From Catajapyx aquilonaris (taxonomy: Eukaryota), in contig JYFJ02003931.1 in assembly GCA_000934665.2 (NCBI GenBank), positions 1 to 36,290 of the forward strand: 36,290 bases of DNA. Reading direction: 5' to 3'. Below are positions 3,785 to 36,290 of the stretch, in pieces (positions within the stretch are counted from its first letter, which is position 1; each line of letters starts with the position of its first letter). Under the pieces are notes generated by a model. That model searched no databases and was not told where the DNA came from. It saw only the letters and a program-made list of their open reading frames with translations. The translations under genes were made by a program, and so were the position numbers.

Positions 3785-5013
3785 ATGGCCGAGTCTGCAG
3801 CTAACCTGACTGGTACTACACGCCAGAAGCCATCGATATTCGAAGTTGTAGCACAGGAGAACTTGGACGCAACGATACAACCAGCCGTGTACCATGTTGC
3901 GAGGGTACCCGTTCGCATCGACATATCCGTAATGCCCATAATACAAATTTTAAAATTTCAGGTTCTGGCTACTTATTATCCGGCCAAGTTTTCCTGGCTG
4001 ACACGTTGGTTCGATGAGATTTTTTTGGCGCTTAACTTCGCCTTGCAGTCGCAGTCGCTCACGACTTATGGTACGTTTATTGCGACAAGCACGGACCGAG
4101 CTTAATACGTCAATTGCAGGTAGTTCGCTTGCGGAGAGCTTCTACGGCTTGGAGCGCATACCGGTGCAGGATGGAAAGCCGCGGTTCGGTCCACTACCGA
4201 AGCGGGCATACCGCCTATCGCTTGTGTTCTTAGTCCTGCTGCCGTACCTCAGACGGAAGGCGGAGAAGCTGTATGAAGAGTTGAAGTTCAACCAGGCTGA
4301 AGGCCGGTTGTCGGATAAGGTACAGTTCATCCAACGCTAGCCGTGCAGCATTAATGTGGAAGTCATTTTGCAGGATTATGAGGATAAGCTGCGACGTGCG
4401 TTCATGGCGACCTTTCCGTTTCTACATATGACCTTTGAATCGGCAGTACTGTACTACAACGTAGCGTACATGGCCCAGAAGTCGCGGTACCACAACCCGT
4501 TGCTGAAGTTGGCTGGAGTTGAACTCAAGTACGATTCGGAAGGAAAGCTGAAGGAGATGGAGAGGCGACAGGCCGAGCTGTTCAGCTGGCAGTCGTGGAA
4601 GTGAGTACGCAGCTTGGTGTAACCAGGATACGACTCATTCCTTTTCTCCATGCAGCACGCTTCGTCGCTTCGGCTGCTCGGCAACTCGAGGGGGTGTCCA
4701 GCTTCTGTTTTGGGGCCTGGAAGCCTCGTCGTACTTTCTCCAGTGCCTGGAATGGTGGTTTGCTAGCGAGCATACTGCGGATCTGACCGCCCTTCCTGCT
4801 CCTCCGCCTCCTCCGTACGCAACACGCATGCTGGATCGCAGTTGCCCCATCTGCTGCAGAGAAAGAAGAAACGAGGCTGCACTGAGTGTGTCTGGATATG
4901 TCTTCTGCTACGCTTGTATTTTCCGTCACTTGAAGGAGCACGGAACATGCCCTGTCACGGGATACTCGGCGACGGTAGATGAGCTCGTTAGGCTCTTTCC
5001 ACCGACCCAGTAA
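3785..5013 (+). CDS. PEX12: Peroxisome assembly protein 12 (RING peroxin), 5 coding exons, 337 aa
   Basis: Exons 3785-3904, 3962-4070, 4120-4319, 4374-4600, 4656-5013; GT-AG introns, total 1014 nt. Motifs: KPSIFEVVAQE, WFDEIF, SLAESFYGL, FLQCLEWW, LPAPPPP and the degenerate C-terminal RING CPIC...SGYVFCYACI...CPVT. Confidence 0.95.
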
Positions 5014-17788: not shown

Positions 17789-20700
17789 ATGGTGTATGAC
17801 ACACTGAGTCTGGACCTGGGTCCTGGGCCTGGCCTAGGAGGAGGCCTGGGGGGCAGCCGGCCCCTCAGGCCCCGGGGCGGAGGTGGGGCCGGCCTGGGGA
17901 TCAGCCTTGGGCTGATGAGCCTGGGCTGGAGACCCCGCCTCTGCCTCCTGGGATTCCTCCTCTCCTTATACCTGGTAGCCTTCATGCTCATCTCTCTGGT
18001 CAGCCTCGACGGGGACAAAGGTCGGATGGCCAGGTTGGCCAGGGGTTACGAGAGGATCGGAAGGGTGAGTTTGACCTAGGCAAAAAAATGATAATCAGGT
18101 TGCCATGATCGGTTGCCGGTTGCCATGGCAACAGCAACCGATTGCATGTAATCAGCAACCGATTGCCATGGAAACAGATTGTCATGGCAAGCGGTTGTCG
18201 GTTGCCGATTGCCATGGCAACAGCAACTGATTGCCATGTAATCAGCAACCGATTGCCATGGAAACAGATTGTCATGGCAAGCGGTTGCCGGTTGCCATGG
18301 CAACAGGAACCGATTGCTACGACCACTTGTTATCATGGCAACCGGCAACCGATTTCCATGGCAATCTGTTGCCTATGACGCATATGTTGCAGTATGGCCA
18401 TCTGTGTCAGGATGTAGTACTACGTCCATTAAATTTCCTGTTCATTTCAAATTTCCAGACAGAGCAGTTGGGAGCTCCGGCATTGGGCCTGGGGGGCAGG
18501 GGTCCTGGAATCAGAGCATCCATGTTGATAGGAGGGCCACCAAGGAGGTCACGTCTCAGGTGGTGCGTGGCGCAGAGGTTTAGGACCGAACCTGGTCCTT
18601 TGGTAGCCCTTACCAGCTTCCCAGGTAGTGGGAACACCTGGCTCAGATACTTGTTGCAACAAGCGACTGGTAAGTACACCGTAGTTACATTCAACGGGAT
18701 GTAAAAGGCCTGTTGGTCTAGGGGTATGATTCTCGCTTTGGGTGCGAGAGGTCCCGGGTTCGAATCCCGGACAGGCCCACTTTTTATCCTCATTTATTTT
18801 AGTTTATTAATTTTATTTGTTTTATACATGGTAAGTACAATAGTTAGAGCGTATTTCATACGAAGGCCTGTTGGTCTAGGGGTATGATTCTCGCTTTGGG
18901 TGCGAGAGGTCCCGGGTTCGAATCCCGGACAGGCCCACTTTTTTATTATCATTAATTTTATGATAAATAATGTACATTTTGACATACTACCCAAGCCAAT
19001 TATGTTGTCATATTTTGTTGACATTAGAGCTGTAGGTGGTATATTGCGGAAGGAAGGGTACTGTAACGACCCTCTTTCCGTGAGCAATATCCAGCAAACG
19101 TCCTAGCCAATGAAACGACATGAAATATTCAGGAGGGGAGGGGCAACCCCCTGTTCACCTCACCAAACAGAAAGAAAAAAAAGAGGGACAAGGTTGCTAG
19201 GGTCGTGCAATATTCGTCCTGTTGTGTACACATCAGTGTCCTAGAAATGCAATTCTACGAACTAGGTTCAAGTCAAATTGAACTTTGCAGTTAATTTAAC
19301 TTTATAAAAAAAAGAGCGAAGGTTAAATTACAATTCAAGGCTTGACTTGGAGGCATGTCATGAATATTTCGGGAGCCAATCAGGAGGCAATACCAGGTGC
19401 ACACAAAAAAAAGGGTTGGAATTACCTGGCAATCTGTGCACCTTTCGTAGGAAATTGCTCCGGGAATAAATATCCGGGGGCGGATATAGCAAATATGGTG
19501 GAATTTCTGGAGCCTGAAAAACATGTTAACCAACTGCCGGTTAACATGTTTTTCTTCCGAGCTATTCAATATTTATATGCCAGATGCATCATTTTTATGC
19601 ATTTTTCTTTCCATACAAACAAGGTTAAAGATCATTGAACATACGATGAAGTGTTTAGAAGTGTCCCCTTGTTATAGCTGGTGTGACACATACATCATGC
19701 AGGAAGCTTTATTTATGGATCGCGGGGGTTAACATGTTTAGACGCTGGGTCTAGTGTTGGGCACGTGGCCAGCAAGGGTGACATACGGAGGGCCTTGCTT
19801 AGGCCCAGGTTTTAGGCTGTCTCGCCATATGAAATAATGGCCATGTATTTTAAGTGCACAAGGCGTAACAAGTGTGTTTTGAAAGGTCAGTGTTACGTGG
19901 ACCTTCGGTAGCTCAGTTGGTAGAGCGGTGGACTGTAGTCGGTTATAAAGCAGGCATCCATAGGTCACTGGTTCAAATCCGGTCCGAAGGAATTTTTTAA
20001 TTTTTAAAAATATTAAGCGCGTAATGTAGTCGTAAAAACTGAAGCGAACTGATTACTAATTTTGTACATCTCCACAATATTTTAAATCTGAAAAATATTT
20101 ATTTAAGAGGAAGAAAAAAATTCATTCGGACCGGATTTGAACCAGTGACCTATTGATGTCTGCTTTCCAAGCAACTACAGTCCACCGCTTTACCAACTGA
20201 CAGTAACTCCATAATTTTTTAACATTTATTTGCACATCCTGTACCTCTTACTTTCGGAGTAACTTTCTTATACACTTTATGAGAGGCCAGGAAGAGATAT
20301 ACCGGAACTGTTTCCTTCGTCAGTAGTAGCTCCACACCATCCAAAGAAAGAAGTATCTTTTATTTTTATTTTTTACTTCCTTCGGTGTGAAGAAGTCTCG
20401 CATCAATTGAGGAAACCGGAAGACGCTTCGAAACATCCGGGAAATTCATTTCCGCTCAAAGTTCCTATCGAACCTCCTGTACAATTAGTGTAAGTGAATT
20501 TCTCTTCGCAACAATTGCGACTAGATTCTATAAAAAGAACTTGGTAGTCTACCTTTAACTTTTTTCTGAAACGTGCTGAAGACAACTTCCCAAGAAACAT
20601 TTCTTAAGACCTTTTTTTTTTTTGCAGACAAAGACACTGTTCAAATACAACGAAAATAGGGCATGGGAACGTGTCCAGGTTAAAAGCATATTGCTTTCTT

Positions 20701-23700
20701 TTTGAGGACACGTGTGTCTGCTTTTACTTATTTATGGAAGACTATACCACCCATAGTACAAGCTAACGTATACGATCGATGACCTATTGGAATTACGTGG
20801 TAAAAGTAGGTGGTCAGTCAATGGAGAAGGGTCATTCACTGTCAGGAAGGGAATTTCACTTTCGGAAAGACTTGTTGCGCCTTTTTGTGCGGTGAAAGTG
20901 CACATTATAGCCCCCCCTAATAGAGGTCTAATTATGGCCAACTTGAATTTTATACTGTAATGAGACTAATGACCATATTAGGACTGCTAATGTTCAATAT
21001 CTTCACCAGATTAAGAGAAATAATTATTAATTTGGATTAACACATGAGTGATTGTATGCACTGCAGTATGGCCACGGAATGATAGAAAATAGTACATAAC
21101 TCGCACTATGACCTAAAATTCGGAATTTTATGACTTTTTGTAAATATTGTGTCATCTGAGCTGCAATTGTGCCAAGTTTAATCCAAGATTACTGTAAAGT
21201 GTACACTGGTCAATTTGGCGTAGGAAATGTATGTGATGAGTCCGCACTATTTTTTGTGTCGTAGTCCTTTAAAAATCCCTCTAATGAAGTAATGAACGAC
21301 CCCAATTAATTTTCCTTCCCACGTCCCATTTGGCGAATCGGCCACTTTATTTTTAGTTCCCTCCCCGCCTTCCCCCATCCACCCTCGTCCCTCCAGCCCA
21401 CCCACCCTTTTGGCCACAAAATAGAGCAAATGATCCCAATTGGCGATGAAAGACGGTTGTTTCGTGACCGCATAGCTCGTTTCGGATGCCTAGCAGTAGA
21501 CCTCACATGACAAAGGCACGTGGAGGTTGGAAGGTAGGGGTTAAAACCTGTGAGACGTAATTGAATAGAGCTCTCCCCCCAAAAAAATCCTAAGCACGCT
21601 TCGGCCCGCCGATATTAATAGACTCGGCGGTTTTAAGAGAGATAATTCATGGAGACGAAAGAGAGAGGGCGTCCTGGCGATGAGCCTCATCTATGATCAC
21701 TAACTATAGAATGGCGTGACCTTTCAACCAGTTCTAAATAGGAAGTGACATTTACCCGAATAGGATTGGAATAAATAGTATCATACATTGAGACATTGCA
21801 TTAAATTGACTCTATTTTTCTTTTTGTGAATTTTTTATTTTTATTTTTTATGGAGTTTCTGGAATTTTATTGAATTTCTTATTAATTTATTATTTATATT
21901 TGAATTTATTATTCGTATTTGTATTTGAATTTATTATTTTTATTTTATTTGAATTTATTATTTTTATTTCATTTGAATTACCGTAATTATTTTTATTTTA
22001 CTTGAATTTTTATTTAAATTTATTTTACATTTATTTTTTACGTTTATTTATTTACATTTATTTTACATTTATTTTTTGCGTTTATTTATTTACATTTATT
22101 TTACATTTATTTTTTTTGCGTTTATTTATTTACATTTATTTTACATTTATTTTTTTACGTTTATTTATTTACATTTATTTATTTTATTTTGTTTACTTAG
22201 ATTTGTATTTTATGTATTAATTTATTTAAATTTATTTACATTGGTATTTTATGTATTAATTTATTTAAATTAATATAAATTAATATAAATTTATTTATAT
22301 AAATTTATATAAATTTATTTATTTAATTTATTTATTTAAATTTATTTATATAAATTTATTTATTTAATTTATTTATTTAAATTTATTTAGTTAAATTTAT
22401 TTATTTAAATTATTTAGTTAAATTTATTTATTTAAATTATTTATTTAAATTATGCGTTTAAATTATTCATTTATTTAAATTTATTTACTTTCATTTGTAT
22501 TTTATGTATTAATTTATTTAAATTTATTTACATTTTATGTATTAATTTATTTAAATTTATTTACATTTTATGTAATAATTTATTTACATTTTATGTATTA
22601 ATTTATTTAAATTTTATGCATTAATTTATTTAAATTTTATGCATTAATTTATTTAAATTAATTTAAATTATTTATTTATTTAAATTATTTAGTTATTTAA
22701 ATTATTTAGCTATTTAAATTAAATTAAATTTGTTTCAATTGATATTAATTATTTTACGTTGTGAATTTAAATATATTTAAATATTATTCATTTTAATTCA
22801 TTTTAGTTTATTTAAATTTCTTTATATTTTCAATTTATTTTATTTAAATTTCTTTATATTTTCAATTTATTTCAATTTATTTATATCAATGTCTATTTTA
22901 CTCCATTTTAATTAGCTAATGAATTAATTATTATTGCTGGCCTGTATAGTGGCCTAACATGCCTAGGACAAAATTCTGTAGTTGGTTGAAACGTTGAATA
23001 ATTAATTAAATTTTTAATATACAGTTATATAGCATTTTGGCATGCACATTTCTGTGACAGCACTGCATATGTCCAACTTGATTAAGACATTAAGTTTTAA
23101 TTAGATGGCAGCCCATCATATAATTAGGGAGAGCTCTAAAGATGCGTCCTTCAAGCCCCGTTGCGTGACACAACGAATAATAAGGAGCAAGGTCACTTGA
23201 TTATGCGGAGCACCCTGTACTATCGCGTCTTTATTATCCTTGTATTTAATAATATTTATAAAATATTAATTTTGACAACTTTTTTTTTCTTTCTTATAGG
23301 TTTGTACACGGGTAGTGTGTACAAGGACTACGCCCTTCTGAAGCATGGTTTCCCAGCCGAGAGTGTGACCAACGGGTCAGTCCTGGTCATCAAGACTCAC
23401 GAGTGGGGTCCCGTGGCCCGAAAGCCCTTCCAGAGGTCAATCCTTCTGGTGCGTGACCCAGGGGCGGCCATCATGGCCGAATTCAACAGGCAGAGCGGAG
23501 GACACGTGGGCCACGCGGGACTGGACAAGTACAAGCGTAACAATGGTAAATGTAAGTTGGTAACCAGGAGGTCACACGGGTCAAAGGTCAAATGTGAATT
23601 ATCGACTGGAAATGCATTCATTGAACCATGGAATCGGAAAACGGGCTATGTTACTGTTACATAGCCCGTTTTCCGATTCCATGGTTCAATTTATTGTCTT

Positions 23701-26700
23701 CTCATGTCTGCATGTCACATCGTGTCATTTGTGACCACCACCTTTTTTTACCCCCATCATCCTTGCGACTCGTTGCGATTACATCACACACAAGATCATG
23801 CATAGATTCGGCACTTTATCACCATCCCATTCAAGGCAAATCACCCTGATCCGCATATTGCTTTGAAGGCTGCCCCCCNATCTTATTACCCCGGCCTGTA
23901 ATCGCAGTCGCCTGCTTATTTCCGCTTTTTCCTCGACAATTGCAGCCTGACATGCAATAATATAATTGTTGAAGCCCGACGATCCCATTCATTTTCCCCA
24001 TCACCTTACCCATTTTTGGACAAATTCCTTTGAAAATCTGTCTCCTTTTCATATTCATATGAAAATATTTCACATATCAACAGTTATAATAATATTTGAA
24101 CTAATAATTATTTAATTTGAATTTTAATAGTTACAATTAATAGCTACATAATAGCTACATTAATAGTTACACTAATAGTTATAATTATTAAATACTAGGA
24201 TACTGTATATATTAGTTATTCAATACTAGGATACTGTATATATTAGTTATTCAATACTAGGATACTGTATATATTAGTTATTCAATACTAGGATACTGTA
24301 TATATTAGTTATTCAATACTAGGATACTGTATAGTTATTCGATAGTTATAGTTATTAATAGTTACCTATTAATTTATTTTGTTTACATAAGACAGTACCG
24401 TATATAATGATTGTTTAACACAAGTAGTTACATATTATATCTATGTAATAGTTACATTATATTAATAGTTATTTAATAGCTGTAGTTATTAATAGCTGCA
24501 GTTGTGTAATAGTTATAGCTATTTAACCGTAATTTGCATTAGTTATTTAGTGGCTACAGTTACTAATGGTTATATTATATTAATATGCATGACTGTTTAA
24601 TAGTTACATTATATTTATGGAATAGTTATACAATATTATGTTTGAATACTAGTTACGAAATATTATATTTGTATAATAGTTACAAAATATTATATTTGTA
24701 TAATAGTTACATAATATTATGTAACTATTATACAAACATAATATTATGTAACTATTATACAAACATAATATTATGTTTGTATAATAGTTACATAATATTA
24801 TGTTTGTATAATAGTTACCGGTACATATTACATTTGTGTAATAGTTACATAACATTCAATAGTGCAATATGGTTATTTAATAGTTACATTATATTATGTT
24901 TGTATAATAGTTACCGGTACATATTACATTTGTGTAATAGTTACATAACATTTAATAGTGCAATATGGTTATTTAATAGTTACATTATATTTTATCCGAT
25001 ATTAATAGTTATGTACTGGACAGTGGAGAGTGGACACAGTGCTTTCCCGTGCTGCGAGTGGAGCAACCTGGTGGCCTTCATTCTAGTTATATCGAGCTTG
25101 AAGCAATCATGAAGTGAAAGGGCTTAGACCCCTTCTTAGAGATAATAATACTAAGTCTGAGATTGGGGACGGGAGAAGTATAAGAGCCTTCGGTAGCTCA
25201 GTTGGTAGAGCGGTGGACTGTAGTTGGATTGAATAGCAGCAGGCATCCATAGGTCACTGGTTCAAATCCGGTCCGAAGGACTTCTTTTTTTTTAATTCCT
25301 CAAAAAATTATAGAGTTTATGGAAGTTCATAATTATGCAGGTTTGTGCGCGCTACAGTTGCAAACTATGAAGTACAGTGGGTAGAATAATTAATGGAGAT
25401 GGTCCTTGAGAAGCAATTAATTCTAGACGAGGACATTTTCATTATGAAAATGGTGGGTTGGGTTTATTGTGCACATTAGGGCCTTCAATGAGCGAAATTG
25501 CTCTGTACTATATTTATTGCATTTATTTCAATAATTGACAACCCCCCGCCATTTTGGATCCAATGGTTGACCACCCTGTATACTGGTGATGAAGCACCGC
25601 CATTTTGGATCCATTCAATCAGGATTGACTACCCTGTACTTTTCTTATGATCTGTTCCAGCAGTTTCCTTGCTCTATGACATAATAACTCAAGTCGCGTG
25701 ATTGACCTCCAAGACCTTGTTATGGCTAACAATTTCCCTTCCTTCCTTCCTTCCTTTTCTAGATTGGTTCGATTTCGTGCAGCAAAAGGCCGAAGCATGG
25801 CGTGCGATGACTTTGGACTGGCTTCTCAACTTTTCCGGACCACAATATGTGCTGTACTACGAGGATCTAGTGGCAGACGTTGCCACGGAGCTCAAAGGAG
25901 TCCTCCGGTTCTTACAGGTAACACTATATGCTTTTGAGATGTCTTCAACGAGGTCGAGGAGCCTTCGATTTTTATCTCTCTTTTTTTGGCAGCACTTCTC
26001 TTGTTATCTCAAGTTTCATCTTTGTTCGCGAGAAAGTTCTTTGACGCTGGAGAGGAATAAAGCGTGTGTTTCAGAAGAATGAGGTCGTCCCTTTGTATAC
26101 AGTTGTTCGGGATATGAAATACTTTGAATGAATCGATGTATCGATGCTACATCGCCTGCTACATTTCGTCTCCTGCGACCAAGATGACCTCGGAGGTCAA
26201 GTCCAAATGTGCTAAAACCTTCCCCGTTAAAAACTACCCCTAATGATCACCCTGAGGCATAAGTCGAGGCCTCCGTATTGATTTGCATCGGGAACAAGGG
26301 GACATATGTTGTGAAATATGTATAAGATTAAGAGTTTATTTTAAAATATGTGCAGTATATAATATTTATTATGGTTAATATGAGCGCTCACTTATTTGTT
26401 GATAGGTTCAGAAGCTCGCGAGAATCGGTCCGTGAGCGTGAACATAAGCGAGAGAGTTTCTCGCGAGCTTGCCAAAGCACCTTTTTAAACCGTTCAAGCA
26501 AAATTAATTTGATTTTTTTTAATGAGGTAAAGGTGTCTGACTGTGAGCGTGAGCGTGAAGCTAAGCGTGACAGTTTCTCGCGAACTTTCTAACGCACCTT
26601 TTAATCTTTCAAATAAAATTAATTGGTTTTATTAATTTTAATATACTTTTTCGAGAAAAAAGTCTTATGGAACGGCTCTGTCTGCCTGTCTGTCTGTGGA

Positions 26701-28353
26701 CAGGTATCAGACAGACAGAGCCGTGCTATAAGACTTTTTTCGATTTTCGGGTTCGGGTCCACTATATCCCCCCTTTCTCCCTGACCTCCCAGTCCCCCGC
26801 CCCCTCCCCCAGATCACCCCCCCCCCTCCTCCTCCTCTTACCCCATGATACATGATACCTGTCCACAGACGGACGGACGGACAGAGCCGTGCTATAAGAC
26901 TTTTTCCGATTGATGAAAAAGGTCTAACTCTAAAAGAAGGGTTTGCGAGGATATATTTTTTTAAAGGGAAATGGGCGGGGCGGTGGGGGGACAATAGCAG
27001 TAAACACGAAAAAAGTCTACTCTAATCACGCTGACGTGATTTCCCAATCTTGTTTGTCTGTCATACGAACGCGTTTGAGCGTAAGCGTGAACCTTCGCGT
27101 AAAAATAAGCTTGTGCGTGCTCCTAAGCGTGAGCGTTTCTCGCCAACTTGCCAACACACCCATTAATCTTTTTTAATTAAAATTAATTTAATTTAACTTC
27201 TGTCAGGTCAACGCGTCTAACCGTGAGCGTTTGTCGCCAACTCGTCCACACACCCATTAATCTTTTAATTAACATGTCTAAGCGGGAGCATGAGCGTGAA
27301 CNAGCCGTGCTATAAGACTTTTTTCGATTGATGAAAAAGGTCTAACTCTAAAAGAAGGGTTTGCGAGGATATATTTTTTTAAAGGGAAATGGGCGGGGCG
27401 GTGGGGGGACAATAGCAGTAAACACGAAAAAAGTCTACTCTAATCACGCTGACGTGATTTCCCAATCTTGTTTGTCATACGAACGCGTTTGAGCGTAAGC
27501 GTGAACCTTCGCGTAAAAATAAGCTTGTGCGTGCTCCTAAGCGTGAGCGTTTCTCGCCAACTTGCCAACACACCCATTAATCTTTTTTAATTAAAATTAA
27601 TTTAATTTAACTTCTGTCAGGTCAACGCGTCTAACCGTGAGCGTTTGTCGCCAACTCGTCCACACACCCATTAATCTTTTAATTAACATGTCTAAGCGGG
27701 AGCATGAGCGTGAACCTAAGCGTGAACGTATCTCGCAAGCTTTCCAACACATCTTTAAATATTTTTAATGAAATTAATGTAGGTTTTGTCAGGTGAACGT
27801 GTCTGAGAACGTCTTCAACTTCAATCTGTCATAGCGTGAGCACAAGCGTGAGCATGAGCGTAAGCGTGAGCACAAACGTGAGCTTGAGCGTAACCGTGAG
27901 CACAAGCGTGATCACAACCTAAGCGTGAGCACAAGCGTGAGCACAACCTAAGCGTGATCACAACCTAAGCGTGAGCACTAGCGTGATCACAACCTAAGCG
28001 TGAGCACTAGCGTGATCACAACCTAAGCGTGAGCACAAGCGTGAGCATAAGCGTGAACGTTTCTCGCCAACTAGCCTACACACATTTAAATTTTTTTAAA
28101 AAAAAATAAAATTGAATTTAAATTTTATCAGGTGAACGTGTCTGAGAGCGCCTTCAACTGTATGCTGCACAACAAGGAAGGCATCTACAAGCGCAAGAAG
28201 CGCAACATGACCTTTGAACCCTTCACACCACCATTGAAGCAAGTGCTGGACACTCACAAAGAAGCGGTTCACGTGGCCATCAAGAACTTCTGGAGCCGAA
28301 ATCAGACGGAAACCTTCGCAGGAACGACTCAGGATTCGCCATCGACCACTTAA
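17789..28353 (+). CDS. WSCD family member (CG9164-like) type II membrane protein with sulfotransferase domain, 5 coding exons, about 371 aa
   Basis: Exons 17789-18064, 18459-18669, 23300-23551, 25763-25917, 28132-28353; GT-AG, total 1116 nt. TM helix [23 protein letters not shown], 5'-PAPS loop [35 protein letters not shown], 3'-PAPS motif [25 protein letters not shown]. Start Met is uncertain because the exon acceptor is at 17752 and the frame is open from there; upstream exon(s) not firmly located. Confidence 0.9.
18099..18372. repeat. Intronic tandem array of palindromic TTGCCATGGCAA units (RFX X-box-like)
   Basis: Perfect GTTGCCATGGCAAC at 18119-18132 and 18291-18304, GTTATCATGGCAAC at 18329-18342, plus about 6 variants; higher-order period about 90 bp. 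Confidence 0.85.
18459..18669 (+). CDS. WSCD-family gene coding exon 2 (PAPS-binding loop)
   Basis: tttccag|ACA ... ACT G|gtaagt; encodes RWC...[22 protein letters not shown]. Confidence 0.9.
18707..18778 (+). tRNA. tRNA-Pro(TGG)
   Basis: GGCCTGT/ACAGGCC acceptor stem, CTCGC-TTTGGGT-GCGAG anticodon arm, GGTTCGAATCC T-loop, T6 terminator. Confidence 0.95.
18865..18936 (+). tRNA. tRNA-Pro(TGG), identical second copy
   Basis: 72 nt identical to 18707-18778, followed by an oligo-T terminator. Confidence 0.95.
19902..19991 (+). tRNA. tRNA-Tyr(GTA) with 17-nt intron
   Basis: Same mature sequence as the 17025-17114 copy; intron TCGGTTATAAAGCAGGC; T6 terminator. Confidence 0.95.
20122..20200 (-). 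pseudogene. 5'-truncated tRNA-Tyr(GTA) pseudogene
   Basis: Lacks the first 11 nt (5' acceptor strand). Substitutions in the D-arm (GTAAAGC), anticodon stem (ATCAAT) and acceptor stem (CGAATG). Retains the 17-nt intron TTGCTTGGAAAGCAGAC. Confidence 0.88.
21830..22885. repeat. Extremely AT-rich low-complexity / (ATTT)n-derived tract
   Basis: About 1 kb almost devoid of G/C; atttatttacattt and atttatttaa units. Confidence 0.9.
23300..23551 (+). CDS. WSCD-family gene coding exon 3
   Basis: ttatag|GT TTG ... AAA T|gtaagt; encodes LYTGSVYKD...KTHEWG...LLVRDP...[14 protein letters not shown]. Confidence 0.92.
23620..23690. repeat. Perfect hairpin, 32-bp arms, 7-nt loop
   Basis: attgaaccatggaatcggaaaacgggctatgt-tactgtt-acatagcccgttttccgattccatggttcaat. 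Confidence 0.92.
24191..24333. repeat. Perfect 31-bp tandem repeat, about 4.6 copies
   Basis: aatactaggatactgtatatattagttattc. Confidence 0.9.
24590..24990. repeat. AT-rich minisatellite (tgtataatagttacataatattatgtt, about 27 bp) with a larger duplication
   Basis: Directly visible tandem units; explains the repetitive ORF 24585..25112. Confidence 0.85.
25187..25280 (+). tRNA. tRNA-Tyr(GTA) with 21-nt intron
   Basis: Same mature sequence; intron TTGGATTGAATAGCAGCAGGC; oligo-T terminator. Confidence 0.95.
25763..25917 (+). CDS. WSCD-family gene coding exon 4
   Basis: ttttctag|AT TGG ... CAG|gtaaca; encodes WFDFV...W...W...YYEDLV...LRFLQ. Confidence 0.88.
26885..27716. repeat. Near-identical ~415-bp direct duplication split by a single N (probable assembly overlap)
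   Basis: 26885-27301 and 27303-27716 differ only by one substitution and two small indels; N at 27302. Confidence 0.85.
27833..28058. repeat. Minisatellite agcgtgagcaca (12/18 bp units)
   Basis: Tandem copies directly before the last WSCD exon. Confidence 0.85.
28132..28353 (+). CDS. WSCD-family gene last coding exon
   Basis: ttttatcag|GTG; encodes [24 protein letters not shown]...FEPFT, ending in TAA. Confidence 0.88.
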   Translation: MNVSESAFNCMLHNKEGIYKRKKRNMTFEPFTPPLKQVLDTHKEAVHVAIKNFWSRNQTETFAGTTQDSPSTT

Positions 28354-28545
28354 AACTGGGTTTTAAAAATATAAAATGGTGCGCAAGACCAATCGTTTAA
28401 AAGTGTGCCAGGACAATCATCGAAATGATGTGGACTAGCGCGTTCACACTGCAGCTTTTTAAAATAATTCAACAAAAAAAAAGCGAACAGCGCCTTCAAA
28501 CGGATGGTAGGAGAAGTATGGCTGTTTAACCAGGGAGCATATACT

Positions 28546-28874
28546 ACATAAGAGGCGCAAACTTCTGTCGGCGCCTTTGATGTCCGCGTCTCTCTGTTTG
28601 GGGCCGTTGCCAAGGCTGGCGGCCATTTTGAAGTGTGGGGAACGCCAACGAGGTATAAATAAAAAGGCAAAAATAGGGTCCGCCATCTTTGATGGTTTTG
28701 GCGGCCATGGCAACTACACGGCAAGAACATGCGCGAATCAAAGATGGCGGACCCTATTTTTGCCTGTACCCTATTTACACCTCGTTGGCGTTCCACACAC
28801 TTCAAAATGGCCGCCAGCCTTGGCAACGCCCCAAACAGAGAGACGCGGAAATCGAATGTTTGCGCCTCTTATGT
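28546..28874. mobile_element. Fold-back / MITE-like element with inverted arms of about 140 bp
   Basis: Left arm 28546-28693 and right arm 28737-28874 are reverse complements with a few mismatches and indels; 43-nt spacer; no clear target-site duplication. Confidence 0.7.
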
Positions 28875-28895
28875 GTTTAACAGCAAAAACACCGT

Positions 28896-28990
28896 ACAAT
28901 TGGCTTCCGTGACATTTGGTGGGCATTTAATCAGCAACTAAAAGGCAGCAGCCAAATGACCCGCAGCCAAATGGCACGGCAGCCAGTTGT
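28896..28990. repeat. Small inverted-repeat element
   Basis: acaattggcttccgtgacatttgg ... ccaaatggcacggcagccagttgt (24-bp arms, 3 mismatches) with internal gcagccaaatg subrepeats. Confidence 0.6.
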
Positions 28991-30625
28991 CGGGATACCG
29001 TATCTGCCAATTTTTAAAAGAAAGTGAAGGAAATTAGCATGTTTTTTTGTACCAAAAGAAGCGACTGTGTGAACGCGTCTTATAAAACGGTGGCGACCAG
29101 ATGATTTCGCGATATTGGTGCGATGTGAGACAAGAAGTGATGTACCTGAAGATTACGAGCATTTCTGTTGAGATCAGGGGTCGGATATCCAAGGGTGATC
29201 TTTACTACGAGACGAAGTGGCCGAATGCATCATGGCAAAGCCACTATAACATTCGTTGGCCACATCATGCTAGTGGACCGACCGTGCGTCGCGTAGTAAA
29301 GATCAGCCGTGTACATTGTTGCTGGTGGCTGACATTTTTTTGTGTGTGTTTCAACAATAAGGCTTCCCCCATCCATACATATTTATCACAGCCAAAAAGA
29401 ATGGTGGGTGGGTCTTAAACTGTGGCTACAACCCCGTTAAAACCCAGGTTCCAGTATTTTCTTCAAAGAAGGAGGAACCTTATACTTGACCAAAGCATAA
29501 AGACATGAACTCGCAGGCGACATATCTCAACCCAGACTTAGCTTTGTATACATTAGTGTTAAGTACAATTAATTTTTTTAAACAACCTAATTAAAATATT
29601 GGTTTTAAGGTGACCAATCAGATTCGGCTCCTGATCCTCTTTGCTCAAAGAGGATTTAAAAAAGAATAAATATATCCAAATTAAAACGTATGTCACCACT
29701 ATTCCAACTAATTTTTTCAACGGTAATGTGCCGTTATTTTTTGAGTTATTAAAAAGTTTAAATTATTTATTCATATTTACAATGACTGTTTCACCAAATT
29801 TTTTGGGCCAAATTGAGGCGTCTTCCTTTTTAAACAATTTTCTTCCCCACATTTTTCACACTATTCGCTAGATATATTTATTGCATATTTTGGGCTTCGT
29901 GATATATTTAAATAATAATTATTATATTTAAAAAAAAATTACATACACACACGTCCAACTTTCTGGAACTTTGTGGCTAATTGTGATCGCTTTTAACTCT
30001 GTGGGTTAATTCCTTGGGTGATTAATTGCTGAAAAATAAGTATAATATTATGTCTTATAATGTGCCAAAAAAAAAATTATGTAATGCTGACGCTTCCAAA
30101 CAAAATATAATAATACATACTGTACACTTTGGTAACTTATTTTGTAAATTGCAAAGTGAACATAATGTGCACAGCTTCATGTGTCATACCCCCCGTGTAA
30201 TCATGCTGGCTTCAATTGTTGTATACGTTTTTATCATTACTGTTATAACACATCGTTACATTCCAATTTTTTGTACATATTTTTTTGTCCTCAACATAAC
30301 ACGACCAACCGTTTTTAATTTTGGAGTCACGATAACTGTGATGCGACTCGACTAATATGTCGCGCAATTTTTTTTTACATTGGCTGCTACTTCTCCCCCA
30401 TTATTTTTTTTAGCATAATTATATGTAAAAAAAAAGGGTTTCTAGTCAACACATCCAACCCCCCCGATATGTTTGTAGCGCAATAAAATATTATAGACCA
30501 ACATGCGTTTTAAATTTTAATTAAATAGAAATAACCACTTTTCTTGGTCCAAAATTGGAACAGGTAATAAGAGAAATTGTTTTAAGTATATAACATAAAA
30601 TTTAGGGGGGGGAAAAAAAAAAGAG

Positions 30626-30697
30626 TTCCGGAACCGGGAATCGAACCCGGGCCTCCCGGGTGAGAGCCGGGTATCCTAACCACTAGACCATACCGGA
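30626..30697 (-). tRNA. tRNA-Glu(CTC)
   Basis: TCCGGTATGGTCTAGTGGTTAGGATACCCGGCTCTCACCCGGGAGGCCCGGGTTCGATTCCCGGTTCCGGAA; one U-U mismatch in the acceptor stem; T10 terminator. Confidence 0.93.
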
Positions 30698-31093
30698 CTT
30701 GCTTAGAAACATTTGTTCAAATGAAGCCTTTATATGTCGGAATGCAGCAAATTTTAAAATTAAATTGTTCTAAATATGGCAAAAATAAGATATGATAACA
30801 TACTGGGTTTTGGATAGGTCATGCTAGAAGAAGAAAAAAAGTTTTAGTAGTGGTGTTCACGAGATTTATTCCGAAAACTCGTTACACCTGACCAAGTACA
30901 TATTGAACGTCAATGGGAGAGAAACTAGTAACTGCGAACAATATGTACGCTAAATTCCTCTACAATGAACCATGTGAAAAAATACGTTACGAACTCATAT
31001 TGTCTTAATGCTTACAAAAATCATATGCCTTTTGTTTACAAAACGAATGAAAGAAAAACTGGAATGAGCCGCGATTGAGACGAGTAACGCAGT

Positions 31094-33404
31094 TTACACC
31101 ACGGCAAGCTTCTTGATTTCAGCAAGCAGTTTCTTATTGTACTCCTTTGGGTTCACTTCCGAGACTTCCATGACACTTGTCTTCTGACGCTGCTCATCCT
31201 GTGGCGAGAAAATGAAATTAAAACGTTAGCCCAACAGAAACACATTAATGTTTTCTCATGCGGCTGAGCAGTCAATGTGACTGATTTTATGTGTATAAAG
31301 TATGCTTCTATTCCAATCACACAAGTAAATTCTAATCGCAACGAACTCACATTGAAGCTTTCCTTCTTGACTCGCAATCGGAACATCATCGGTTTGAACA
31401 GAGGCTCGTTAAGTATGGCCTGAAACTTATCCGGATCGTTTGTCTGCATCTCTCCCAGCTCTTCACTCTTATTACCCAGAATAAGCTCCGCTGAATCCTG
31501 GAAGCAGCTCACCCACACGTTGTCCGTAAGATCAGCAATGTTCATCTTCAAACAATAAAAATTTATTATTAGCGTCACTACTACTTGACCAAACTGGGCA
31601 CAACATTATTTTACCTGAAGCATTAGCCTCCATTTGAAATTGTGGTATTCACAGTTGCATTTCTCGCAGCGGTACATGCCATTGTTCTGGTCAATAACCT
31701 GCAGATATCAAAAGCAATTGTGTCAATATTTCGCTTCAAATATGTTTATTAAAAATGATAACGGGTTAAAAACCTTTTTGTTGCAGTTCGTTCCAGGGCA
31801 GGCTTGATACAAGGCGTTTTCCTTCTTGATTAGCGTAATGCAGGCTTTGGAAGAAAAGTAGTCGGGCCTCTCAGTATTGCCCATGTCCTGACTCTTCACC
31901 TCGCAGAAGTACCTGATGTTGTTATTCGAGTCTGGAAGTCATGTCGGATGAAGATATTACCAAACACATTGCCACAATTGAGATGCAGATATAAATTTAG
32001 CAAAACTGACCTCCAGCACCGCCTGCAAACTTAACAGAGGAGATGCTCTCTGATTCCATATGGACTCCTTCGTTGTCAAACCAGCCTCTGAGGACATGGC
32101 TCTCCCTGATGTCTGGGTTGATCTGCAGGATGGAATTGAACACGGTTGACAGCGAAGCGCCGCCGAAGTCTGACAGCTTTGCTCCCTTCACAGCAACAAC
32201 TGGACGCGAGCTGCCATCAAACTTCTCAGCATCATCGCCCCAGAGGGTCAGGGTCACTTCCGTGTTGGACGAGTCCACCAGGTGAAGGTCACGTTTCTTT
32301 AGCTCACGCTGTGTGGTGCGGGACGTCAGGTTCTGGACGTCCCCGGCACTCTTGCACACACCAATCACATCTGGCAAGTGGACAAGCCGACATATTAAAC
32401 AACTCATCAGTAACATGTGGCTGAAGATAAGAGCCAAACAACTGACCCAAAATGGTGTCCTTAGACATATCCTTGAGTTGTTGGATGGCGACAAAGTTGA
32501 AGGTGATGGTCGGAATTTGGGTGTCATCCTCATCGCATGGAATCACCTGAGTTTCATTGTTAAAAGTCAGCTCATACTCGTGCTTCACGCTTGTAAATTG
32601 CTTGTTCGCCGTCTTCATGCTGCACTTGGAGATGAAGTACACTTTGTTCATCTGCAATGAGGCAGCATTTTAAAATCTGGACACCTCACAAGAACATTTC
32701 TGTGCACTTAGAAAAGCACGGCACACTCGCCTCAATCTGATCGTAGAAGTCGTCAACCTGCTTGTTGAATGCGGTTGCCCTGATATCCCCACTCTGATCC
32801 ACAAGCTCCATCGAGAAGAGCTGTCCCTCGCCCCTCTGGTTGTGGTATTTGCGGATGCTGCTCTTGTTCATCACTCGTGCCTTTATTGTCCACCTTCCAA
32901 AGGACACGATATTATAGCAACCCCTGAACTCAAATTATTCCCTTCGAACCAATCGGCGAATCAATTGGGTATGGTAAAGGATTTTTTATGTTCGTTTATG
33001 GTCGGGTGAAAATGGCAAAGACAGGCTTCTATCAGAGGCGCAGTGCCTAATGTATGCAACTACGTACATACAACTTTCCTCTAACAAGCATTTTTAAATA
33101 AAAATTAGTTTAAGTCTGTGCATTGCATAATCTGCCTCCTGTTAACAAGATCCGGAATTTGAATCAATTAAACTGCATTTAGTAACATTATCCATTGACA
33201 CACACAAGCCATTGCTGGTCAATTGTGCCGTCATGTTGTACTGGTGTTTCTTCGTTAACCCGAATTACTTTCCATACCTGTTCTGATAAGGCGACAGGCT
33301 GGAGATTGGATGAGTCTGCGAGGCTGCATCATTGTTGGCATAGTTCGAGGAACTCGATCCTCCTCCGTACGGTCTGGTGTTTGAAGGACCCGACTTGAAC
33401 AATC
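31094..33404 (-). CDS. RPA1: Replication protein A 70 kDa DNA-binding subunit, 5'-partial (linker plus DBD-A, B, C; about 465 aa visible)
   Basis: Exons 33404-33278, 32893-32731, 32651-32447, 32370-32011, 31931-31774, 31698-31615, 31545-31351, 31198-31094; phases consistent. Motifs: [69 protein letters not shown] zinc finger, [10 protein letters not shown]. The N-terminal OB-F exons lie beyond the window; a strong donor CAG|GTAAGT is at 36285/36284. Confidence 0.95.
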
Positions 33405-34976
33405 CTGAAATAAAAGCAACCAACCTAGGAAAATGCCGTTCTTTGCAATTAGGGTTAATCAACAGCAATAGTTTTCATACGCCGCCGTTTAAAACTGCCA
33501 AGATTCTAATTATTGAAAAATCAGAAAACGAGACGTGGTACTTTGCAAAAAAAATATATGTAATATGTAGCAGTGTTTCAATATCTTTTGCACACTGCAG
33601 CCACTAATGTCACTTGCCAATTAAAATTATTAATTCGCAGCACACTTTGTGAACCACTCAAGTATTACAACTGTACAATTTGGAGAATTGTTGGCACATA
33701 ATTAGCAGATTCATTACTAGCCGACTTATTAGGAATGCAAAGTAGTTAGTTCGGTCTTTCATCATATGAATTTTTCCGCAGTGTACATGCTCACTTTATT
33801 AAATTTCGTACTCGTCTAGCGTTAGTACATTGATGTCATCACTTCAGCACAAGCTCCCAGGAATAATTTAGCGAGGAAAAGAGAAGCTGCATGACTATCG
33901 TAACATGTATCTACAGGAGCGGGAAGCACACATATTTTCAGCTGCACTGCACAAGAATAAGTACTCGTCACACTCATTACACACAGAATTGCTGGTCCCA
34001 ATGTGAAAACAGGGGGGGGTAATTAAAAAGCAGACAATTTTTTTTTTGTTGGAATGTTAATGTCACTTTTCTTTTTTATTCCACAAAACAAGCGACTTAC
34101 ACTTACACACTCCAAATACCCTTCCAAACTCACATCTACTAGGAACAAACCTCGACTCTTTCGCCCTACACAACCTAAAAAAAGGTCACGTCACCAATTC
34201 CGACCAAATACTGCTCAGTAAGAAAAAGAAAAAACACAACCTTTTCCAGTTGGTCCACACAACTCAAAATATCACAACTCCTCCAACTGCAACGAACTCA
34301 GTCTTTTTCCAGTTATGATTAGTAAAACCCACGAAGAAGTCAGTCTCTTCACCGTTAACTCAGTCTTCTTCCTTTTCAAAAAAAAAAAAAATCGGGGAAG
34401 TCTTGCCGTTTTACAAATTATGACCAGATTACAAACATCTCTCGTAAAGAAAAACCATATAAAAGCGTTAACTATCGACTAACAAACAAACAAAAAATTT
34501 CGGTTTACTTCACCATTGAGCATTACTGAATAACTATGAAAAATTTTTAAATATTAAAAAAACAATGAAATGACACCCATCCCAAAAAACATTACATTGA
34601 AAAAAGATCCCAAGATCACACAACACTTCCATACTTAGAGTATAAAATGCATTCTGGTACAAACTTCACTCCTTTAAAAAGTCCTAAAAATCACTAAAAT
34701 TATCACGATCTCAAGTCCGTTATATATATAAAAAAAAGGGTCAGTCACAGAATTTGCGGCTTAAGAAATGAGCATAACACGTAAATGGAAGCGATTAACA
34801 ATCACAACTTGGCGGCTTCCATCAAAAAGGTGGAGAAATGAGAAGATCCGTCTGGAAGACGTCGGTTTGGCAAAAAACATTCATGAGCTGAAGACAAAAA
34901 TGCAATATCATTCCTTACAAAAGACTCCAAGTACAGAAGCGTGGTTTTTTAAATCTTCCATGGTCGAAGCAGTAGC

Positions 34977-36010
34977 CTATGCCTTGACTTCCTCCACCTT
35001 TTCCAATCCCTCCAACTTCTCGGCCTTCTCGGCCTTCTTCTCAGGCTCCTTCTCGGACAGCTTCCCATTTTCAACTCCGTTCTTCTCCGCCTCTTTTATT
35101 TCCGGCTTCTCCACAGTCTTCTGCTTATCAGTTTTCTCCTCTCCGTTTTCAGCCTTGTTCTCTTCAGCCTTTTCGTCAGTCTGATCGGCCATCTTTTCCT
35201 TTTGCGGCTCAGCAGATTCAGCCTCATTCTTGGCGCCATTTTCCACCTTGATTTCGTCGCCATTTTCCGCCTTCTTTTCTGCCTCTTCGCCATTTTCCGC
35301 CTTAGCATCCTTTTCTGGCTTGGTATCCTTTCCGGATTCAGCCTTAGCCTCATCTTCCTTCTTAGGTTCAGCCTTGTCTTCATTTTTGACTGTACTTGCA
35401 GCCTCAGTTGCTACTTCTTCAGCCTTAGCTTCTTCTGCCTTGTCGCTTTCTGACTTCTTCCCATTTTCAACAGCAATTTCCACCTTGCTTTCTATCTTGT
35501 CGTCAGCCGTGTTTTCCTTGGCTGCTACCTCATCTGCAACTGCCTCGGTTTCTTTCTTAGGCTCATCCACCGCAGTTTCCATCTTCGATTCAACCGAGCC
35601 ATTTTCCACCTTTTCGACACCTTCATCGCATTCCATCTCTTCTCCATTGGCAACCTTCTCCGTACCATTGGTGACTGGTTCCACCTCCATTGGCTGTCCC
35701 TTCCTTGGAGCTACCACCAATGTGGGATGCTGCGACTTCATAATGGCCACCTTCATCTGCAGCATTTCAGTCTCCAAGCGCAGCTTCTTGGTCTCTGCCT
35801 CCAACTTTTCTTTCTCTGCCTGCAGGACTTCAAAGTAGAGATCCTCGTCCGGGTTGCGCTCAGGGTCGGAAGCCCTGCGGCGCTTTCGGGTTACTGGGCC
35901 AGTCGAGGCTGCAGAGGTCGATGGCTGGATGGCCCAGGACTGGGAGGAAGGAGCGTTGCTCTCCACCCAGGCGGCCAGCAGATCGCACAGCTCCTCAGCC
36001 ATGACGTCCC
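34977..36010 (-). CDS. Uncharacterised terminal coding exon inside the RPA1 intron: basic NLS, coiled coil, long E/K/A-rich disordered tail
   Basis: 364-codon ORF 36071-34977; pyrimidine tract plus AAG acceptor at 36011 (phase 1) and in-frame ATG at 36002. RKRRR, coiled coil EVLQAEKEKLEAETKKLRLETEMLQMKV; TAG stop followed by a U-rich 3'UTR-like tract with AATAAA at 34080-34075 and 33800-33795. Confidence 0.75.
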
Positions 36011-36290
36011 CTTTGGAGAGGGTGACCGAGGCAGTAAGGAGGGAGGTCAAATGACTGCATCCAATTTGCATCTGATTATGATAAATTTTTTGTGAATCGA
36101 CCCCATAAAATGCTACCTCCCTCCAACATCATAGTGCTTACAACACAGGGAATGGGAAGTGAGTGCTAGCTGCTTCAAACGCTATTGAATAACGGAACTG
36201 TACACCTTAAGCAGCTGCAGCCACACAAGTGCTTCCCTTCCCCCACGCTGCCAGTTGCGCAAACACTCAATCTAATCAACTTACCTGCTG

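Follow-up and report, generated by a model that had tools for sequence, protein, structure and literature searches.

The RPA70N domain of RPA70 (RPA1) is the docking site by which RPA-coated single-stranded DNA (ssDNA) recruits checkpoint and repair factors, and the DNA-binding domains DBD-A, DBD-B and DBD-C of RPA are needed for tight ssDNA binding and for joining RPA32 and RPA14. To our knowledge, RPA70N-only constructs have until now existed only as artificial laboratory products. Acidic amphipathic peptides are ligands of RPA70N, among them those of p53, DNA2, PrimPol, ATRIP, HelB, BLM and others (eLife 2023, PMC10479964). Isoforms produced by alternative last exons and intronic polyadenylation are widespread, examples being those of an atlas of intronic polyadenylation (IpA; PMC5928244) and the TOP2A case (PMC9265003). 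Alternative last exons are common; among the matches listed in our literature search no alternative-terminal-exon form of RPA1/RPA70 was described.

We analyzed a stretch of 36,290 nt of Catajapyx aquilonaris (contig JYFJ02003931.1, assembly GCA_000934665.2), called the window below. Its minus strand carries, at 36010-34977, an open reading frame (ORF) that probably serves RPA1 as an alternative terminal exon, the likeliest of the readings considered here. Like intronic-polyadenylation isoforms, the resulting short form would end in an intron-borne terminal exon that supplies a stop and a poly(A) signal of its own, and would be truncated before the downstream domains; unlike them, the RPA1 exon adds 344 structured-plus-disordered codons and not a few intron-derived ones. 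The resemblance to canonical RPA70/RPA1 is that both would come from the same gene, with the canonical mRNA spliced across the ORF exon and the N-terminal exons presumably in common. The short form would differ from it in being without DBD-A/B/C, ssDNA binding and the trimer interface, and in bearing a 344-residue orphan tail.

The canonical RPA1 gene lies on the minus strand within the last 6 kb of the window and is backed both by Pfam matches and by a spliced cDNA contig. Its open frames matched REPA_OB_2 (1.7e-30) and the OB-fold family tRNA_anti-codon (9.8e-07), so that the DBD-A and DBD-B OB folds are present, and DBD-C with its zinc motif matched Rep_fac-A_C (3.1e-19). The gene model for these three domains (30892..33404) comprises eight exons and 464 codons and reaches a stop at 31096-31094; a scripted join of the exons gave 464 residues from the linker to the stop. 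The exon at 33278..33404 holds part of the linker and the start of DBD-A, and it is preceded by the canonical acceptor CAG|GATTG (AG at 33406-33405, cut at 33405/33404), which is in phase 1. RNA support came from one run (X1) of one study, of a kind not recorded, consulted as contigs over 28000-36290. A contig of 1628 nt, referred to here as the RPA1 contig, spans seven RPA1 introns with GT/GC..AG borders, and since the X1 contigs skip the RPA1 introns we take them to derive from spliced RNA. These seven introns measure 69-384 nt, and AAG acceptors are in use within the gene at 32894 and 31546, both as an earlier note on this DNA, made from the sequence, had proposed in giving the other RPA1 introns as shorter than 400 nt. 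One of the seven, at 32652-32730 (minus strand), has a GC..AG border with the donor GAG|GCGAGT.

Among named RPA70 proteins, the best matches to the RPA1 protein are 53-55% identical to it over 440-460 residues; they come from arachnids, damselflies, a mantis shrimp and an acorn worm, and no close relative was found in the protein collection searched. In alignments with full-length relatives, residues 2-9 of the window's RPA1 fall at residues about 130-157, and PF04057 is in the precomputed Pfam lists of these relatives; the upstream part missing from the window would therefore be RPA70N and about half of the linker. Judging from this alignment, the exons upstream of the window end should encode these parts. 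The last nine codons of the upstream exon, read by hand from the RPA1 contig, are rich in S, P, N and G, linker-like and in frame.

The ORF exon lies between the window end and the canonical acceptor. Its frame runs for 344 codons from 36011 to a TAG at 34979-34977 (coding part 34977..36010), the first codon being completed by a G of the upstream exon, and from stop to stop it measures 383 codons, an open length that was reached in none of 2000 shuffles. The first 110 codons are not low-complexity, and the open length of that part was reached in only 4 of 2000 shuffles. Codon-position bias is strong, with G at 51% of first positions and A at 50% of second positions. The exon is preceded by the acceptor AAG|GGGAC (AG at 36012-36011, cut at 36011/36010) with its pyrimidine-rich tract (36011..36044), 18 of the 25 letters before it being pyrimidines. 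The 3' untranslated part extends over 34976-34055, its low end being approximate, and includes an AATAAA at 34080-34075 that is likely the poly(A) signal of the exon; a second AATAAA at 33800-33795 also precedes the RPA1 acceptor. The frame of about 344 codons, its TAG, both AATAAA motifs and the two phase 1 acceptors had all been predicted by the earlier note and are in place.

The frame is expressed. A second X1 contig (1303 nt; here the ORF contig) covers 36013-34738 at 99.6% identity, with five single-letter differences in 1276 letters, of which two are synonymous and three change residues (allelic); the reading frame is unbroken. A further 26 letters at its 5' end match nothing in the window. 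Since the contig leaves the genome at AAG|G, with 36013 as its last aligned position, and continues into 26 off-window letters, the exon is spliced at the predicted acceptor. The ORF at 36010-34977 is thus a real, expressed exon whose acceptor is used in RNA. The ORF contig and one other extend over the 3' untranslated part to 34135, 55 nt short of the AATAAA at 34080. X1 contig cover is absent in the bins 33540-34093 and 36033-36290, to which we give no evidential weight, and the contig depths, 18 (RPA1 contig) and 9.07 (ORF contig), are figures that cannot rank the isoforms. A promoter and terminator scan of 35900-36290 returned nothing, its models being bacterial and irrelevant to a eukaryote.

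The connection of this exon to RPA1 rests on the geometry of the two contigs at their 5' ends. The RPA1 contig keeps 27 loose letters beyond 33406 and the ORF contig keeps 26; once the two and three letters, respectively, that still align are counted in, each contig holds 29 upstream-exon letters. For Logan contigs k is 31, and "all 31-mers are distinct" (PMC12424806). Where one exon forks to two others that both begin with G and part at the second letter, each branch would hold 30 shared letters (29 of the exon and the G), and when a shared exon was made to fork to the two real exons, with their GA and GG starts, overhangs of 29 and 29 were obtained in 200 of 200 simulation runs. The seven other RPA1 junctions were all crossed unbroken by the contig (7/7). 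Alignment of the ORF contig takes in AAG (36013-36011) and breaks off at 36014, an A, which fits an upstream exon ending in C-AAG, like the ...ATCAAG of RPA1, and does not fit CAGCAG. The RPA1 upstream exon leaves a single codon letter, G, which gives the RPA1 frame with GA and the ORF frame with GG, and the reading frame is open across the predicted junction into the ORF exon. The equal overhangs of 29 letters, the AAG end, the common phase 1 and the unbroken state of the other junctions together make a shared RPA1 donor the best reading, and this geometry, as distinct from letters read directly, suggests that one RPA1 donor probably feeds both acceptors. Spliced-leader trans-splicing was considered as a source of the loose letters and rejected, as the RPA1 upstream letters are in-frame, linker-like codons and an overhang of 29 letters is not what a leader common to many genes would produce.

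A possible alternative source of a break with a 29-letter overhang is an independent exon set against its own unspliced intron (G|GT). It is conceivable, if unlikely, that the ORF exon is the last exon of an independent nested gene lying on the same strand within the RPA1 intron. The promoter of such a gene, and a short first exon without coding sequence, would lie upstream, outside the window, and its product would be a 341-residue protein from the ATG at 36001. This ATG (36001-35999) is in frame, comes three codons after the acceptor and has G at both -3 and +4; like same-strand nested genes, the exon is self-contained inside a host intron, its ORF being followed by a 3' UTR of about 0.9 kb with an AATAAA. 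The want of a precedent for an RPA70N-only form also speaks for a separate gene, as none of the 16 RPA70N-bearing proteins (lengths 334-1066) obtained in a word-limited search was without DNA-binding domains. However, the locus differs from nested genes in that its 5' border is a used acceptor and in that the graph evidence points to a host exon as the donor. The nested gene would need a first exon that happened to end, like the RPA1 exon, in a letter other than A followed by AAG, together with a break of the ORF contig at exactly 29 letters; it would further need the RPA1 contig to break at 29 letters for an unrelated reason, even though the other seven of seven junctions are unbroken. The same 29/29 agreement would be a matter of chance if the transcript were unspliced and started at about 36013, the 26 letters being an adapter or template-switch oligo and the pyrimidine tract a promoter. 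The unrecorded library type of X1 and the unread state of the 26 letters leave some room for this reading; we nevertheless regard it as very unlikely because the break falls exactly at the AG behind the tract of 18/25 pyrimidines, such a transcript would have a 5' UTR of only about 12 nt, and six loose ends elsewhere in the X1 contigs share no common letters.

The earlier note had taken the RPA1 donor to lie at 36285, at the end of an exon ...CAGCAG|GTAAGT serving both 36010 and 33404, and had put the intron at about 2.9 kb. The donor-like motif CAGGTAAGT is indeed present on the minus strand at 36287-36279, with its CAG|GTAAGT cut at 36285/36284, and it is the sole perfect MAGGTRAGT in the window and stands on the sense strand. 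This count of one is set against 0.87 expected, with at least one copy in 62 of 100 shuffles, and the motif is no more than a chance occurrence. Only five letters of the supposed exon fall within the window, and they mismatch the upstream-exon end seen in RNA, which reads ...ATCAAG in the RPA1 contig (minus strand, read by hand) where 36285 has CAGCAG; the ORF contig, for its part, aligns three letters (AAG) into the acceptor, whereas CAG would give two. The upstream-exon letters had no match in the window with up to three mismatches allowed, and none in metagenome contigs. Since they are absent from the window, the true donor lies beyond the window end and the intron is longer than 2.9 kb. 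The 36285 version is therefore contradicted for the forms seen in X1, where we hold it to be extremely unlikely, while a rare extra exon at this place is possible. Of the proposed alternative last exon, the part that stood is the terminal exon spliced at the predicted acceptor in phase 1; the donor had to be given up. It is hardly credible that the frame is non-functional or repeat-derived, that is, a purine-rich low-complexity stretch or a transposon fragment transcribed within the intron, as the note had allowed in speaking of a multi-copy transposon fragment. The tail is low-complexity with internal repeats and is without relatives, and the opposite strand is also open for 166-217 codons, as such a reading would have it. 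Its 5' border is spliced, however, and the frame is represented by one contig at 99.6% identity without variant copies. The first 110 codons, with their complexity and an open length that only 4/2000 shuffles reach, also speak against it; no transposon domain was found in Pfam and no second copy within 33405-36290. Target-site duplications flanking the exon, a sign of a retrocopy, were searched for and none was seen, the only repeats being those internal to the tail.

We return to the preferred reading, in which the ORF is a terminal exon of RPA1. The tail would open with an acidic amphipathic helix, continue through an S/T/P stretch bearing an SQ site and the basic RKRRR patch to a helix of 40 residues, and end in about 245 residues of acidic, disordered sequence. 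The first helix is predicted at residues 3-19 (35955..36005, minus strand, as are all tail features), with a mean pLDDT of 66 for residues 1-10 and of 78 for residues 11-20. Residues 2-17 are acidic (5 D/E), hydrophobic-patterned and predicted to be helical; in these respects they are like the peptides that bind RPA70N, a likeness of general character only. The S/T/P stretch with its SQ site, followed by RKRRR-A-S, sits between the two main helices, and RKRRR itself (residues 42-46, 35874..35888) is a candidate nuclear localisation signal, which we presume from the motif. Residues 54-94 (35730..35852) are predicted to form one long helix (block pLDDT 77-95), in which 8 of 13 core positions are hydrophobic in the best heptad register, and this candidate coiled coil probably pairs as such.

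Beyond it, residues 100-344 (34980..35714) make up an acidic, E/K/A-rich region predicted to be disordered, with a net charge of about -31; residues 101-344 hold 76 D/E versus 45 K/R. This part contains degenerate internal repeats of the K-A/V-E-N-G type, with six ENG motifs and the repeat families D1 and D2, and the ENG-type motifs stem from degenerate DNA repeats. The single-sequence fold of the tail gave a mean pLDDT of 53.7, with the disordered region mostly under 50 and two short, low-confidence helices at residues 154-185.

Searches for relatives of the tail were made in several collections. The earlier note had likened the coiled coil to the C-terminal segments of Myb/SANT-like proteins; this likeness found no support, as the tail matched no Pfam family at E up to 1, a Myb/SANT-like domain included, and a phmmer search of 1.84 billion representative proteins gave two matches, both tandem-repeat junk and neither a real relative. 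A homologue search with residues 1-110 gave 76 candidates, none of which scored, the ESM Atlas, searched twice, held no usable match, and the 203 pattern matches of the tail protein in metagenomes included none that was confirmed. With a tail that has no relatives, conservation cannot support a tail function.

Under the preferred reading, the ORF exon would sit in the long intron (>2.9 kb) between an exon ending in RPA70N/linker sequence and the first DNA-binding exon at 33404. The same upstream donor would be joined either to 33404, giving canonical RPA1, or to 36010, giving the short form, whose message would end, through the stop at 34979-34977 and the poly(A) signal at 34080, before any DNA-binding exon. 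Because the two acceptors share phase 1, the short form would carry the 344-residue orphan tail in frame behind the RPA70N head and about half of the linker, and its expected length is about 490 residues. If translated, the short form, being without DBD-A, B and C, would have no tight ssDNA binding and no partnership with RPA32/RPA14; it may be a nuclear, possibly dimeric, DNA-free RPA70N module. By binding acidic-helix clients at a distance from RPA-coated ssDNA, such a module would buffer or redirect the recruitment of checkpoint and repair factors, and competition for or redirection of the partners of RPA70N is in our view the most likely function of the short form.

A more elaborate version, which we think improbable, would make the short form a self-regulated decoy, the tail helix docking in the basic cleft of its own RPA70N or, in trans, in that of full-length RPA. 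The tail helix could then be released when the neighbouring SQ and RRRAS sites are phosphorylated, and the coiled coil would make the module bivalent. If the decoy reading were true, the capture of an orphan, lineage-specific exon would have turned a core replication gene into the source of a switchable regulator of checkpoint recruitment. For the simpler form of the model, a natural head-only RPA70N isoform would, if true, be a built-in competitor or adaptor for checkpoint and repair factors. The exon also illustrates how alternative splicing and intronic polyadenylation can attach an orphan coding exon without relatives to an essential, highly conserved gene. A lineage-specific tail and support from a single RNA data set limit the value of the example.

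Several other features of the window were noted. An RNA contig of 327 nt with a higher depth (53.5) lies at 30052-30376, about 0.5 kb past the end of the RPA1 contig (30892, with an AATAAA at 30870), and may be another transcript or an extended RPA1 3' UTR. Many X1 RNA contigs pile up at 28277-29107, with a summed depth of up to 77.7, several variant letters and long loose ends on both sides; four contig records there fit two places of the stretch examined, the open frames of 133-172 codons match no Pfam family, and the region looks like an expressed multi-copy or repeat-derived element. At 29225-29287 an RNA contig swaps 61 genomic letters for 25 others with no splice-site ends (TG..TG), probably an insertion/deletion difference between the individuals sequenced. 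Extremely AT-rich arrays of the (ATTT)n and TTTATTTAAA type, about 1 kb long and with a GC content of 0.10, occupy 21813-22886 and 24185-24991 and are followed by minisatellites with units of 27-96 nt, including a 31-nt unit present in 4.8 copies with a 99% match. The end of a 103-codon frame at 19327-19635 (plus strand) gave a weak match to the Vestigial/Tondu motif (7.2e-04, below the Pfam cut-off). In open frames at 4002-5010 (plus strand), Pfam matches to the N-terminal region of Pex2/Pex12 (6.1e-09) and to a RING finger (2.8e-05) were seen, and by these domain matches this is a peroxin gene of the Pex2/Pex10/Pex12 kind.
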